Both the position numbers and the translations under genes were made by a program. Below the pieces are notes generated by a model. That model made no database searches and was not told the DNA's origin. It was given only the letters and a program-made list of their open reading frames with translations. A stretch of DNA of 64,000 bases, from NCBI GenBank assembly GCA_964016885.1, contig OZ024740.1, forward strand, positions 408,518,001-408,582,000. Reading direction: 5' to 3'. The DNA is from Eledone cirrhosa. Lineage: Eukaryota. Positions 9,601 through 18,600 of this stretch are shown piece after piece (positions within the stretch are counted from its first letter, which is position 1; the number at the start of each line of letters is the position of its first letter).

Positions 9601-12600
9601 TCCATGGCCTCCATGTACTCTATTGAAGCCGTCGCAGTGTTTACCTACGTGTCCGTTAAAATCTCCTGCAATGATTAGGAAGTCCTTGTCGTCTGTTAGA
9701 GCAGTAGTGTGTATTAGGGACTCGTAAAACCTATCCTTAAGTTCGTCTGGCAGCCCCGATTGGGGTGCGTAAGCTGATATTATTGTGGTAATTGTCTTAT
9801 TCAGGACTAGTCTGAGTTTAATGATTCTTGCATTTACCCTGTACACTGAGATTACTTTATCTACCCACTTGTCAGCTAATAGTATACCTACACCACCCAT
9901 CCCATCGTCATTTCCCACCCAGAAAAATTTGTAGCACTGGCTTTTTCCTACAAGGACTCTAGCAGACCCTCCTCTCCATCTAGTCTCTTGCACACAGCAT
10001 ACATCAACTTCCTTTCGCTCTAGCATTTCTACGATTTCTCCTGCTCTTCCTTTCATTGAGCCTACATTGATGGTACCAACTCGGAGTTTTGGGCATTTGT
10101 CGACACTCGTAGGGGAGGGTCTCTGGGTTGGCGCTTCACGTGGGTGCTTGGTAGCTCGCAGATTCATATTTCATCTATTGATTCAGAGTTGCTCGTGTAT
10201 TCCCAGCTCATCCATCCCTAACGGTGGGAAAATTGAGGGCTAGAAGGACAGTGGTGGTGGGGTAATGGCAGGGTGTGTTGGGATGCGCCAGAGGAGGAGA
10301 GAGTTAGTTAGGCAGGTAGTAGCAGCAGCAGCAGTGGAAATGGCATGCTAGGTTTGATTGGTCGAATAGACTATGGTGGTGTGTGGGGGTGGGGGGGAGG
10401 GAAATTGTGAGGTAGGAACTGAGGGTCGCATGGTAAATATCCAAGTTAATACTACATCAGTAAAATTAACAATAATAACGTCATGAAAAAAGCTACTAAG
10501 AGAAACCCTCGAAAATTTATCGCTAATACAGCAGGGAAAATTTAACGCTAATACAGCAGGGAACATCATAATATTAACGACATGAAAAAGCTACTAAGAG
10601 AAACCCTCGAAAATTTATCGCTAATACAGCAGGGAAAATTTAACGCTAATACAGCAGGGAACATCATAATATTAACGACATGAAAAAGCTACTAAGAGAA
10701 ACCCTCGAAAATTTATCGCTAATACAGCAGGGAAAATTTAACGCTAATACAGCAGGGAACATCATAATATTAACGACATGAAAAAGCTACTAAGAGAAAC
10801 CCTCGAAAATTTATCGCTAATACAGCAGGGAAAATTTAACGCTAATACAGCAGGGAACATCATAATATTAACGACAATATGTAGGCTAAAATACCTTCGT
10901 AGATTAGGTGGATGGCTGGCTGGGAAAATTTGAATCAGCTCAGTGGTACATTTTAGCAGAGAAGAATGGCAAAGTGTCTTATCTCTTCAATATTTTCAGA
11001 TTGAATGAATTAGGTTAAAGACAGGGTAGTAAGCCTTAAAGAAGTGCATAGAGGGGGGGGGGGGGTAGGAACTGAGGGTCGCATGGTAAATAACTGAGAG
11101 AGATACAATAGGATTAGAATACCGCATGGTAAATATCCAAGTTAATAAGTTAATACTACATCAGTAAAATTAACAATAATAACGTCATGAAAAAAGCTAC
11201 TAAGAGAAACCCTCGAAAATTTATCGCTAATACAGCAGGGAAAATTTAACGCTAATACAGCAGGGAACATCATAATATTAACGACATGAAAAAGCTACTA
11301 AGAGAAACCCTCGAAAATTTATCGCTAATACAGCAGGGAAAATTTAACGCTAATACAGCAGGGAACATCATAATATTAACGACATGAAAAAGCTACTAAG
11401 AGAAACCCTCGAAAATTTATCGCTAATACAGCAGGGAAAATTTAACGCTAATACAGCAGGGAACATCATAATATTAACGACAATATGTAGGCTAAAATAC
11501 CTTCGTAGATTAGGTGGATGGCTGGCTGGGAAAAATTTGAATCAGCTCAGTGGTACATTTTAGCAGAGAAGAATGGCAAAGTGTCTTATCTCTTCAATAT
11601 TTTCAGATTGAATTAATTAGGTTAAAGACAGGGTAGTAAGCCTTAAAGAAGTGCATAGAGGGGGGGGGGTAGGAACTGAGGGTCGCATGGTAAATAACTG
11701 AGAGAGATACAATAGGATTAGAATACCGCATGGTAAATATCCAAGTTAATAAGTTAATACTACATCAGTAAAATTAACAATAATAACGTCATGAAAAAAG
11801 CTACTAAGAGAAACCCTCGAAAATTTATCGCTAATACAGCAGGGAAAATTTAACGCTAATACAGCAGGGAACATCATAATATTAACGACATGAAAAAGCT
11901 ACTAAGAGAAACCCTCGAAAATTTATCGCTAATACAGCAGGGAAAATTTAACGCTAATACAGCAGGGAACATCATAATATTAACGACATGAAAAAGCTAC
12001 TAAGAGAAACCCTCGAAAATTTATCGCTAATACAGCAGGGAAAATTTAACGCTAATACAGCAGGGAACATCATAATATTAACGACAATATGTAGGCTAAA
12101 ATACCTTCGTAGATTAGGTGGATGGCTGGCTGGGAAAATTTGAATCAGCTCAGTGGTACATTTTAGCAGAGAAGAATGGCAAAGTGTCTTATCTCTTCAA
12201 TATTTTCAGATTGAATGAATTAGGTTAAAGACAGGGTAGTAAGCCTTAAAGAAGTGCATAGAGGGGGGGGGGGGGGGGTAGGAACTGAGGGTCGCATGGT
12301 AAATAACTGAGAGAGATACAATAGGATTAGAATACCGCATGGTAAATATCCAAGTTAATAAGTTAATACTACATCAGTAAAATTAACAATAATAACGTCA
12401 TGAAAAAAGCTACTAAGAGAAACCCTCGAAAATTTATCGCTAATACAGCAGGGAAAATTTAACGCTAATACAGCAGGGAACATCATAATATTAACGACAT
12501 GAAAAAGCTACTAAGAGAAACCCTCGAAAATTTATCGCTAATACAGCAGGGAAAATTTAACGCTAATACAGCAGGGAACATCATAATATTAACGACATGA

Positions 12601-15600: not shown

Positions 15601-18600
15601 GAACATCATAATATTAACGACATGAAAAAGCTACTAAGAGAAACCCTCGAAAATTTATCGCTAATACAGCAGGGAAAATTTAACGCTAATACAGCAGGGA
15701 ACATCATAATATTAACGACAATATGTAGGCTAAAATACCTTCGTAGATTAGGTGGATGGCTGGCTGGGAAAAATTTGAATCAGCTCAGTGGTACATTTTA
15801 GCAGAGAAGAATGGCAAAGTGTCTTATCTCTTCAATATTTTCAGATTGAATTAATTAGGTTAAAGACAGGGTAGTAAGCCTTAAAGAAGTGCATAGAGGG
15901 GGGGGGGTAGGAACTGAGGGTCGCATGGTAAATAACTGAGAGAGATACAATAGGATTAGAATACCGCATGGTAAATATCCAAGTTAATAAGTTAATACTA
16001 CATCAGTAAAATTAACAATAATAACGTCATGAAAAAAGCTACTAAGAGAAACCCTCGAAAATTTATCGCTAATACAGCAGGGAAAATTTAACGCTAATAC
16101 AGCAGGGAACATCATAATATTAACGACATGAAAAAGCTACTAAGAGAAACCCTCGAAAATTTATCGCTAATACAGCAGGGAAAATTTAACGCTAATACAG
16201 CAGGGAACATCATAATATTAACGACATGAAAAAGCTACTAAGAGAAACCCTCGAAAATTTATCGCTAATACAGCAGGGAAAATTTAACGCTAATACAGCA
16301 GGGAACATCATAATATTAACGACAATATGTAGGCTAAAATACCTTCGTAGATTAGGTGGATGGCTGGCTGGGAAAATTTGAATCAGCTCAGTGGTACATT
16401 TTAGCAGAGAAGAATGGCAAAGTGTCTTATCTCTTCAATATTTTCAGATTGAATGAATTAGGTTAAAGACAGGGTAGTAAGCCTTAAAGAAGTGCATAGA
16501 GGGGGGGGGGGGTAGGAACTGAGGGTCGCATGGTAAATAACTGAGAGAGATACAATAGGATTAGAATACCGCATGGTAAATATCCAAGTTAATAAGTTAA
16601 TACTACATCAGTAAAATTAACAATAATAACGTCATGAAAAAAGCTACTAAGAGAAACCCTCGAAAATTTATCGCTAATACAGCAGGGAAAATTTAACGCT
16701 AATACAGCAGGGAACATCATAATATTAACGACATGAAAAAGCTACTAAGAGAAACCCTCGAAAATTTATCGCTAATACAGCAGGGAAAATTTAACGCTAA
16801 TACAGCAGGGAACATCATAATATTAACGACATGAAAAAGCTACTAAGAGAAACCCTCGAAAATTTATCGCTAATACAGCAGGGAAAATTTAACGCTAATA
16901 CAGCAGGGAACATCATAATATTAACGACAATATGTAGGCTAAAATACCTTCGTAGATTAGGTGGATGGCTGGCTGGGAAAATTTGAATCAGCTCAGTGGT
17001 ACATTTTAGCAGAGAAGAATGGCAAAGTGTCTTATCTCTTCAATATTTTCAGATTGAATGAATTAGGTTAAAGACAGGGTAGTAAGCCTTAAAGAAGTGC
17101 ATAGAGGGGGGGGGGGGGTAGGAACTGAGGGTCGCATGGTAAATAACTGAGAGAGATACAATAGGATTAGAATACCGCATGGTAAATATCCAAGTTAATA
17201 AGTTAATACTACATCAGTAAAATTAACAATAATAACGTCATGAAAAAAGCTACTAAGAGAAACCCTCGAAAATTTATCGCTAATACAGCAGGGAAAATTT
17301 AACGCTAATACAGCAGGGAACATCATAATATTAACGACATGAAAAAGCTACTAAGAGAAACCCTCGAAAATTTATCGCTAATACAGCAGGGAAAATTTAA
17401 CGCTAATACAGCAGGGAACATCATAATATTAACGACATGAAAAAGCTACTAAGAGAAACCCTCGAAAATTTATCGCTAATACAGCAGGGAAAATTTAACG
17501 CTAATACAGCAGGGAACATCATAATATTAACGACAATATGTAGGCTAAAATACCTTCGTAGATTAGGTGGATGGCTGGCTGGGAAAATTTGAATCAGCTC
17601 AGTGGTACATTTTAGCAGAGAAGAATGGCAAAGTGTCTTATCTCTTCAATATTTTCAGATTGAATGAATTAGGTTAAAGACAGGGTAGTAAGCCTTAAAG
17701 AAGTGCATAGAGGGGGGGGGGGGGTAGGAACTGAGGGTCGCATGGTAAATAACTGAGAGAGATACAATAGGATTAGAATACCGCATGGTAAATATCCAAG
17801 TTAATAAGTTAATACTACATCAGTAAAATTAACAATAATAACGTCATGAAAAAAGCTACTAAGAGAAACCCTCGAAAATTTATCGCTAAAGAGAGTATTA
17901 TTGATTTAGGTGTCATAGAAACCCTGTATTTGGATTTTACCATCAATTCCAATGGGTCCAGGTTTGTTGTATATATATATATATTATGTATATATATATA
18001 TATATATATATGATTTTATCATTTATTTTGTCTGACCTGTTTAGCTTGACTTGTTTTTTGGCTTAGGTGGTTAATGCCTTCTTGACCGCCTTCTCAGTTT
18101 GTATGGCGTTTATAACCTATGTTTATAGCTCTGCTTTTTTAAACTATGGAGCGCTTGCCAGCATGACTCGGAATTTGCGTTACGTTTCGCTTTTTCTACA
18201 CGCCGAAATGCGATTCTCGCTGAATTTATATTTGTATTTATATATATATATATAAATATGGATATTGTAAAAACATTGATGGAATTCAATTCAAGAATTC
18301 AACGTGTATTTTCCACACAGGAGTGACGGAGTATTTACAGAACAAGTATTCAATTCCTGAACATCGCTGTTTGTCCGTTCCCTTGTCACATCAATTTTGG
18401 ATTACCGCCTTGATTGTAACTTTATTATGTAAGATGCTGTCTGAAGAGAGCATGACAGTGGCTTCTACACTGAATTGCGTGGCCAATGTCCTCGAAATAT
18501 ATATCACGGCCTTATCAATAAAGGACTTTATCATCTAAATTTTGTATTTCCTTATTCTATACATATATATATACATATATATATATATATATATATATAT

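Follow-up and report, generated by a model that had tools for sequence, protein, structure and literature searches.

A tandem monomer array forms the 5' end of a young LINE family in Eledone cirrhosa and carries predicted Inr-DPE promoters

The element and its monomer array

We analyzed a 64-kb stretch of the Eledone cirrhosa genome (the window), which contains no N. An insertion of 11,141 bp occupies positions 6749..17889 on the minus strand, which also applies to its parts and flanks given below, and consists of a monomer array, a 5' UTR, an ORF encoding an endonuclease and a reverse transcriptase (RT), a 3' UTR and a (GAT)n tail, with the two halves of a host repeat as flanks. The AP-endonuclease domain (PF03372, PF14529) lies at 9370..10074 and the RT domain (PF00078) at 7884..8498; no RNase H family was detected in the ORF (Pfam, E<=0.1). 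A PHD-finger-like insert (PF00628, above cut-off) follows the RT core at 7707..7838 and is annotated in many relatives too. The 3' UTR (6749..7046) has a terminal (GAT)5 tail at 6749-6764, and a (GAT)n 3' tail occurs in this copy and in most copies. An A-run at 9178..9185 contains a one-base frameshift, either a true mutation or a homopolymer error, which is private to this copy (all 102 other aligned copies lack it near 9180). The ORF is intact in 79 of 103 LINE bodies and is 1,039 aa long in one natural copy (L071). Between the ORF and the array lies a unique, tether-like 5' UTR (10168..10410), a 34-mer of which has 495 exact matches genome-wide. This is a young, abundant, single-ORF LINE family, represented in this one genome by some 500 copies that are nearly identical and mostly intact.

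The family likely belongs to the RTE clade. Its single ORF combines AP-endonuclease and RT with no ORF1, with merely 244 bp of UTR ahead of the array, and the hallmarks of the L1 clade (an ORF1 and ORF2 pair, a poly(A) tail) are absent, with one ORF and a (GAT)n tail instead. None of the 120 homologues among the matches listed (45–55% identity) bears a clade name, and a PDB search returned only distant RTs of L1, R2 and group II introns, with L1 ORF2p at 116 bits. An HDV-like ribozyme in the 5' UTR is known from some RTEs and is not required for RTE membership; here no ribozyme was found, as Rfam on 6500-12500 gave only a flanking hairpin and a simple P3/L3 pattern had no sense match. RTE copies of 72–75% identity (one at 39.5-43.5 kb of the window, and L133) had no long 5' monomers by TRF, and they may be 5'-truncated.

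The array, previously described from the sequence as 12.3 units of ~605 bp starting about 240 bp from the ORF, was found to comprise 12.36 monomers over 7,479 bp (10411..17889), with periods of 604–609 bp from anchor to anchor and a gap of 244 bp to the ORF start at 10167. Each monomer of ~605 bp contains a promoter-like module, three 98-bp subrepeats, a B module and a C-run of 10–16 that corresponds to the G-run noted earlier; a 25-bp duplication within each 98-mer was likewise confirmed (TRF periods 98 and 25). The 5' end of the array is cut inside a 98-mer. The units are indeed nearly identical: an alignment of 11 of them varies solely in the length of the run, at one substitution and at one 1-bp indel, and the latter two are linked, both occurring in the same three units. 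The LINE-proximal part (10411..10880) has, as had been recognized, four 98-mers, and its B module is shortened by the absence of the segment between two short repeats. The junction left by this deletion has 548 exact matches genome-wide and is typical of the younger copies; thus, this structural variant is not particular to the locus. The undeleted junction was kept in 12 of 60 copies picked by UTR sequence, mostly more diverged ones. CpG retention had been taken as a sign of youth. However, CpG o/e is 0.85 in the array but 0.49 in the LINE body, which is just as young, and CpG retention therefore gives no date. With this value and 36% G+C, the array is not a CpG island.

Linkage and co-insertion of array and LINE

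A genome-wide search with the unit found it dispersed, always 5' of this LINE, in sense orientation and in variable copy number. With 38 of 358 candidates from this search scored, all 34 other unit-picked arrays ended in the 5' UTR of this LINE, and none of 36 traced arrays was free of a LINE; both arrays found through motif matches without an exact UTR match also ended in this UTR. Two candidate orphan arrays (L063 and L064) were rejected, as they proved to be LINE-linked once extended. Sixty copies were chosen in positional order by their unique UTR sequence: 54 continue into an array, and the other 6 end no more than about 35 bp from the junction. Array length across the family ranges from 0 to over 12 kb, and other long arrays reach about 7–12.7 kb. 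The array is part of the LINE itself, as its 5' end. The sequence-only reading had named a unit unlinked to LINEs, or present at this locus only, as evidence against its proposal; both patterns were looked for and neither was seen.

The monomers travel with the element, and the array was inserted together with the LINE. The 11.1 kb of array and LINE interrupt one older repeat, whose 5' half is at 17890..17969 and 3' half at 6631..6745, and whose continuous form is present in 8 of 9 other copies. At other insertions, 36 loci were testable, and in 11 of them the flanks lie side by side within another repeat. A 5' inversion was observed in 3 of 60 arrays. When units with one and with multiple 98-mers were placed on the tree of LINE bodies, 3 changes were counted, compared with at least 14 in 300 label shuffles. 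No target-site duplication was found at this site, where a few target bases were changed or lost. Six dispersed-repeat sites showed overlaps of just a few bases, and most sites are TA-rich and ambiguous. The empty allele of this insertion was not visible in contigs of the read runs, of which the X2 run may be the assembly's own sample and lends no separate support.

Predicted promoters and growth of the array

The consensus letters used for Inr and DPE were the generally known ones. The proximal unit contains an Inr-DPE-like motif of putative function at 10974..11008 (predicted A+1 at 11006). In the other units, the predicted A+1 is at 11613, 12216, 12825, 13432, 14037, 14641, 15246, 15851, 16454, 17059 and 17665; the units at 11613, 13432 and 15851 carry an Inr variant exclusive to this locus, and the Inr-DPE match is present in the other 9 of 12 units. 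The motif consists of an Inr-like site, T+17, G+19, G+24 and a DPE at +28, and the first three of these downstream positions are biases named for DPE promoters in excerpts of PMC4180977. When one unit was resampled by a Markov model, the full pattern arose in 0.01% of cases and Inr and DPE alone in 0.85%, which speaks for a promoter; on the other side, the motif was spotted post hoc, and 6% of resamples have a relaxed Inr and DPE. An older sister subfamily, also with tandem 5' units, is 91% identical, yet identity falls to 55% in the monomer. Between the two monomers, the longest stretch without a mismatch is 20 bp at +15..+34 (the next longest is 10), and the motif spacing is retained in 11 of 14 sister-subfamily contexts. 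Of 383 young contexts, 366 retain the Inr core, and several of the others are cut 5' ends. It is likely that each monomer carries its own internal Inr-DPE promoter. Of the earlier proposal that the array is a monomer-array promoter or 5' UTR, the assignment to the family's 5' end is borne out by linkage and co-insertion, and the promoter part is a prediction from motif and conservation.

The positions of 5' ends were also examined. In the discovery set, 8 of 57 ends fell at -5..+13 (1.82 expected, post hoc), and in a pre-registered independent set 3 of 48 did so (1.97 expected, P=0.31). The latter set is what remained of the 60 copies once we had removed six without an array, two with open ends, two segmental duplicates, one nested copy and one that was interrupted. 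Genome-wide, 26 TA-flanked ends were in the Inr window versus 17 and 14–15 in two control windows, a difference that was no longer clear once scaled by anchor frequency, and two other Inr-like sites in the unit had no consistent excess of 5' ends. The lengths of arrays follow an exponential distribution (KS P=0.77) at 0.76/kb, compared with an apparent body truncation rate of 0.78/kb. The latter value is an upper limit, since older subfamilies may be matched by the RT 34-mer and missed by the UTR 34-mer. Since firing from each unit should add 5' ends, the equality of the two rates counts against simple per-unit firing, as does the lack of clustering at the motif in the pre-registered set. The sole run recorded as RNA contained 7% of element words, and run X5, which covers the promoter module, was left out of the evidence, its type not being on record and its contigs showing no start. 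The promoter block was not found in four supplements of PMC9115989.

Several observations bear on how the array reached its length. The Inr variant occurs three times genome-wide, always in this array, versus 1,679 normal motifs, which points to growth in place; the units bearing it are spaced 4 and 3 apart. One substitution event was found in 6.7 kb of units versus 4 private substitutions in the 3.6-kb body (Poisson P 0.005–0.026). Array structure also differs between copies whose bodies are identical. On the other side, across 30 arrays single-unit variants were only about twofold deficient (0.25 versus 0.48/kb, P=0.04), and all private events together (0.42/kb) are in line with the body rate. 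The part of the unit outside the 98-mers is of the same type in 69% of within-array pairs versus 5% of between-array pairs. Arrays are shorter in the more diverged copies (rho -0.31, n=55), and growth is therefore not a simple build-up with age. The sample covers only about a fifth of the family, and private variants could therefore stem from a source copy that was lost or lies outside the sample. It is likely that the twelve units of this copy grew in place by tandem DNA duplication after insertion. The earlier suggestion of a satellite being born thus agrees with local growth while attached to the LINE but not with the lack of free arrays among those traced.

We considered other ways to account for these data. 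It is possible, though unlikely, that the array is the family's 5' end but that units are added at insertion by the element's RT, through template jumps or cDNA re-copying, so that each copy builds its array anew. In favor of this, arrays already differ in structure between copies that share an identical 3.6-kb body, older copies do not have longer arrays, private and homogeneous unit types occur at L063, L064, L082 and L090, and expansion during second-strand priming is one model for mouse L1 (excerpts of PMC6454616). However, RNA-template jumps would not put a new DNA-level variant into three units at such spacing, so that among RT routes only cDNA re-copying could produce it, and the lengths of typical copies match plain truncation. 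RT template jumping, one of the sources named in the sequence-only reading, is disfavored here relative to DNA-level duplication by the Inr-variant pattern and the substitution deficit.

Somewhat less probable again is that the array is a transcript passenger in which unit number has no effect on activity: the motif would be vestigial, or transcription would start from the outermost unit or a host promoter alone. The absence of a replicated pile-up of 5' ends at the motif, the equal truncation of array and body and the altered Inr in 3 of 12 units here are consistent with this idea, whereas no part of the otherwise diverged monomer is better conserved in two subfamilies than the +15..+34 block and the Inr spacing, and the Inr core is retained in nearly all young contexts. 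That the LINE entered or adjoins an independent satellite, or that the assembly expanded a shorter array, appears very improbable. Near-identical 605-bp units are difficult to assemble, and the read-run data examined were contigs only; against this, no traced array was free, the insertion interval includes the array, the variant units follow the 4,3 pattern, other arrays are of similar or greater length, and the window has no N.

We regard as fairly probable the reading in which the array is the co-inserted 5' end of the LINE family, its monomers likely carry Inr-DPE promoters, and the twelve units likely arose by tandem duplication after insertion. RNA would start at or above some monomer, and reverse transcription would halt at random, so that new copies would carry an exponentially distributed array stub (median about 0.8 kb). 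A stub with one promoter module left would likely still be transcribable, and slippage or unequal exchange at the new site may regrow units and alter the number of 98-mers, which would offset the loss at each jump. A bolder version, which we consider doubtful, is a programmed truncate-and-regrow cycle, in which monomers are self-contained Inr-DPE promoters and the element's integration machinery re-copies fresh cDNA into multi-kilobase arrays. If so, LINE 5' ends would be standing nurseries of macrosatellites, and subfamilies would have retained and reshaped the monomer design in a history independent of rodent L1.

Comparison with known LINE 5' ends

TRE5-A modules of Dictyostelium and the 185-bp 5' repeats of trypanosome SLACS/CZAR occur in tandem; they differ from this family in belonging to other clades and to site-specific elements, with few and short repeats. 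Jockey-type LINEs have one promoter per element, whereas the motif here is repeated in every monomer, as a predicted promoter only. According to excerpts of PMC5633606, the TRE5-A A-module is a 5' module of a non-LTR element with Pol II promoter activity, and the module here, with its predicted Pol II promoter, is similar in this respect. Drosophila LINEs such as jockey have DPE-dependent internal promoters (excerpts of PMC4180977), with the Inr at strict spacing to the DPE and T+17, G+19 and G+24 as in our monomers; in both, the promoter, predicted in our case, is inside the transcript and thus survives retrotransposition.

This family resembles RTE-clade LINEs in having one ORF of about 1,000–1,100 aa with AP-endonuclease and RT, and a microsatellite 3' tail. 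The 5' UTRs of HmRTE-e01 (276 bp; PMC2887409) and RTE-2_OV of Octopus vulgaris (about 600 nt; PMC9115989) are short and unique, and excerpts of these papers describe no tandem 5' array. RTE-2_OV has 1,109 aa and a C2H2 finger, whereas the ORF here has 1,039 aa and a PHD-like finger; clear target-site duplications of 6–15 bp, as expected of RTE-clade LINEs, do not appear to be the rule in this family.

Literature searches turned up monomer arrays for L1 only, with no RTE case. In the excerpts of PMC5381506 and PMC6454616, mouse L1Md (A, Tf, Gf) and rat L1 have tandem 5' monomers joined to the ORF by a unique tether of ~250 bp, and mouse L1 reaches up to 50 monomers, which is attributed to unequal crossing-over. 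Variable monomer number, a tether to the ORF, 5' inversions, truncation at insertion offset by duplication and rare very long arrays are shared with our family, and rat monomers of about 600–650 bp are comparable to the ~605 bp here. However, our element is single-ORF, without ORF1; its A+T-rich monomers (36% G+C) have, in place of a YY1 site, a predicted Inr-DPE core, and no CpG island; and nested 98-bp and 25-bp tiers are present, with 1–12 98-mers per unit. Multi-unit arrays of 0.4–0.6-kb monomers are common here, whereas rat has <=2 monomers per promoter (PMC6454616), and the common truncation site of mouse type A has no replicated counterpart. According to excerpts of PMC6454616, it is unclear how mouse L1 keeps its monomer promoters when retrotransposition is prone to truncation. 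With about 500 copies, arrays of 0 to over 12 kb and locus-private markers, truncation and regrowth are separable and measurable in this family. Repeat annotators would divide such elements into "satellite" and "LINE", and real 5' ends would thus be missed. The monomer-array design is already known from rodent L1; the comparison suggests that it arose a second time in a lineage other than the L1 clade, there with a different, predicted Inr-DPE core promoter.

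Array structure and linkage to the LINE family

The array in the window is 7,479 bp long (10411-17889) and comprises 12.36 units of 604-609 bp apiece, each with three 98-bp subrepeats that all hold a 25-bp duplication, plus a G-run, just as the sequence-only reading had described it. Across eleven aligned units, variation is limited to the length of the run and to two linked changes, both present in the same three units. Next to the array, an ORF starting at 10167 on the minus strand encodes an AP-endonuclease, a reverse transcriptase (RT) and a PHD-like finger. Its one-base frameshift is absent from all others among 103 aligned copies, 79 of which have an intact 1,039-aa ORF. 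CpG retention had been taken as a sign that the array is young, but this reasoning does not hold: CpG o/e is 0.85 in the array and 0.49 in the body (the LINE without the array), which is just as young.

A genome search with one unit (38 of 358 candidates scored, 150 of 190 matches listed) bore out the idea that such arrays lie 5' of this LINE in variable lengths, as linkage was found at 34/34 other loci fetched from the matches listed. At 32 of them, the array ended directly in the LINE 5' UTR (10168-10410 in the window), and the remaining two, with arrays of ~7.7 and ~12.7 kb, reached it once extended. Linkage to the LINE also held for two motif matches that lacked an exact match to the UTR. 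As an unbiased set, we took the first 60 new copies by position among 495 exact matches to a UTR 34-mer: 54 continued into the array, six ended no more than ~35 bp from the junction, and none of the 60 showed an alternative shared upstream sequence. Array length in 58 non-duplicate copies had a median of 0.82 kb and a mean of 1.25 kb (2 kb or more in 14). A promoter-like 32-mer of the unit had 1,679 exact matches across the genome.

The 80 bp past the array belong to a dispersed repeat, which in 8 of 9 other copies runs uninterrupted into the LINE's 3'-flank sequence; thus, array and LINE (6749-17889) occupy one insertion site. A few target bases were changed there, and no target-site duplication was found. 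When flanks of 101 copies were compared with the fetched DNA, both were matched in 36; these were adjacent within another repeat in 11 and non-adjacent in 25, the latter including the window locus until its repeat copies showed the uninterrupted form. The 5' part was inverted in 3 of 60 arrays. Such 5' inversions are known to arise when an RNA, here one that included the array, is reverse transcribed. In a FastTree tree of bodies, in which support is weak and kin share labels, one-98-mer units were basal and multi-98-mer units derived, with 3 changes of 98-mer class among 76 labelled rows versus at least 14 in 300 shuffles. The array is real, family-wide and co-mobilised with the LINE. TA runs flanked both sides of 29/54 copies, compared with 10-14% of background 30-mers, and insertions favour TA microsatellites.

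Several loci had unusual arrangements. Private shortened units (~70-250 bp, 15 to >70 copies), some without the promoter module, occurred at L063/L160, L064/L159, L082 and L090 with the LINE still attached. In a region dense in family copies (G000:C1, ~8.6-9.1 Mb), four insertions (L097, L104, L105 and L106) lie within the same ~18-bp minisatellite, and at L104 (G000:C1:8877716-8887616) a truncated young copy sits in the B module, a unit segment, of another copy's array. Genome-wide strand counts were uneven (247 versus 301 for the junction; 918 versus 761 for the promoter-like 32-mer) and junction matches exceeded expectation, which suggests a few much larger arrays among loci outside the fetched set.

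Predicted core promoter and 5' ends

Each unit contains an Inr-like hexamer, T+17, G+19, G+24 and, at +28..+32, a pentamer that fits the DPE consensus. The biases at +17, +19 and +24 and a strict spacing are named for DPE promoters, with jockey used as a DPE-dependent promoter, in the accessible text of PMC4180977. The motif was spotted after the fact; when one unit was resampled, Inr plus DPE appeared in 0.85% of 20,000 draws, the full pattern in 0.01% of 60,000, and a relaxed Inr with DPE alone in 6.3%. Stronger support comes from comparison with an older sister subfamily (endonuclease ~91% identical), first met beside L092 and followed at 24 further matches with 1.5-kb flanks. It has its own tandem units of 380-438 bp, two near-complete at 4 matches and a partial second unit at 4 more. 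One old and one young unit, when aligned, were 55% identical, and the longest identical run (20 bp; the next was 10) spanned +15..+34. The Inr-to-DPE spacing was retained in 11 of 14 old contexts, the misses being one 5' end and two deletions. Judged from sequence, every unit thus carries a predicted core promoter that likely has a promoter role.

The 5' ends of copies count against simple per-unit firing of this promoter. Among 57 ends in a discovery set, 8 lay at -5..+13 (1.82 expected). This excess was then fixed as a hypothesis before independent copies were counted, and it was not seen in them (3/48, 1.97 expected, P=0.31). Distinct TA-flanked ends genome-wide numbered 26 in the Inr window, compared with 17 in one control window and 14-15 in another; relative to anchor frequency, the values were 0.24 versus 0.12 and 0.25. 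Array lengths fit an exponential of 0.76/kb, and the drop from 4,025 RT matches to 495 UTR matches corresponds to 0.78/kb (an upper bound). From end positions and length fits, ordinary truncation of longer RNAs therefore seems to account for most 5' ends.

Probable growth of the window array in place

An Inr variant is confined to the units at 11613, 13432 and 15851, with three matches genome-wide. It recurs at intervals of 4 and 3 units, a pattern suggestive of block duplication. Private substitutions numbered four in the 3.6-kb body versus one event in 6.7 kb of units (P 0.005-0.026). Some copies have identical bodies and differing arrays. Paired units agreed in the type of their non-98-mer part in 69% of 635 comparisons within arrays and in 5% of 24,565 between arrays. 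The private variant, the few unit substitutions and the within-array likeness are read as fast duplication at the DNA level, by which the window array would have lengthened following insertion; growth in place is likely. Alternatively, units may have been added by RT re-copying of cDNA, or the private variants may have been inherited from unsampled source copies. In 30 arrays of at least four units, single-unit private variants occurred at 0.25/kb versus 0.48/kb in bodies (P=0.04, a modest signal), eight private variants were common to two or more units, and all private events pooled approximated the body rate. Arrays were shorter in more diverged copies.

Three neighbouring pairs (L054/L055, L144/L145, L156/L157) with the same flanks and nearly alike arrays represent either segmental duplication or duplication in the assembly. 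The slight differences between their arrays could be used to date change at the DNA level.

Other features and comparison with known LINEs

Older RTE-like copies at 39539-43477 and 46696-48177 are ~75% identical to the element, with stops and frameshifts, and TRF detected no long 5' monomers. Just beyond the dispersed repeat split by the insertion, 80 bp (6551-6630) form a near-perfect hairpin centred on TA, likely a small palindromic repeat; several miRNA models matched it, all under gathering thresholds. The window also contains an astacin metallopeptidase exon (37641-38207, minus strand; PF01400, E 5e-21) and a 38-bp minisatellite (23066-23371; 8.1 copies, 98% identical). Three sequencing runs labelled as other organisms (X1, X6 and X7) contained the tandem 98-mer and near-unchanged long element pieces (1,269, 1,047 and 625 bp with 1, 0 and 4 differences, respectively). 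These runs were compared with L074:5400-7200 and window positions 17600-21000, and the window's unique flank was absent from them. The pieces could be host trace DNA, belong to a close relative, or reflect horizontal transfer in the recent past.

The single EN-RT ORF and microsatellite tail agree with RTE as described in the available part of PMC2887409. However, target-site duplications, given as 7-15 bp for RTEs in the available part of PMC6007223, are not evident for this LINE. A 5' array is unmentioned for Octopus RTEs in the accessible portions of PMC9115989 and PMC13282606, and full-text searches, covering mainly papers outside subscription journals, listed no RTE monomer array. The LINE is not an L1, yet its organization matches that of mouse and rat L1, with monomers and a ~250-bp tether (PMC5381506, in part). 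According to PMC6454616, duplication in those L1s makes up for truncation, although its mechanism is unclear, and one case with 50 monomers was put down to unequal crossing-over. The monomer design itself is thus known from L1, and the LINE described here is a non-L1 version of it.
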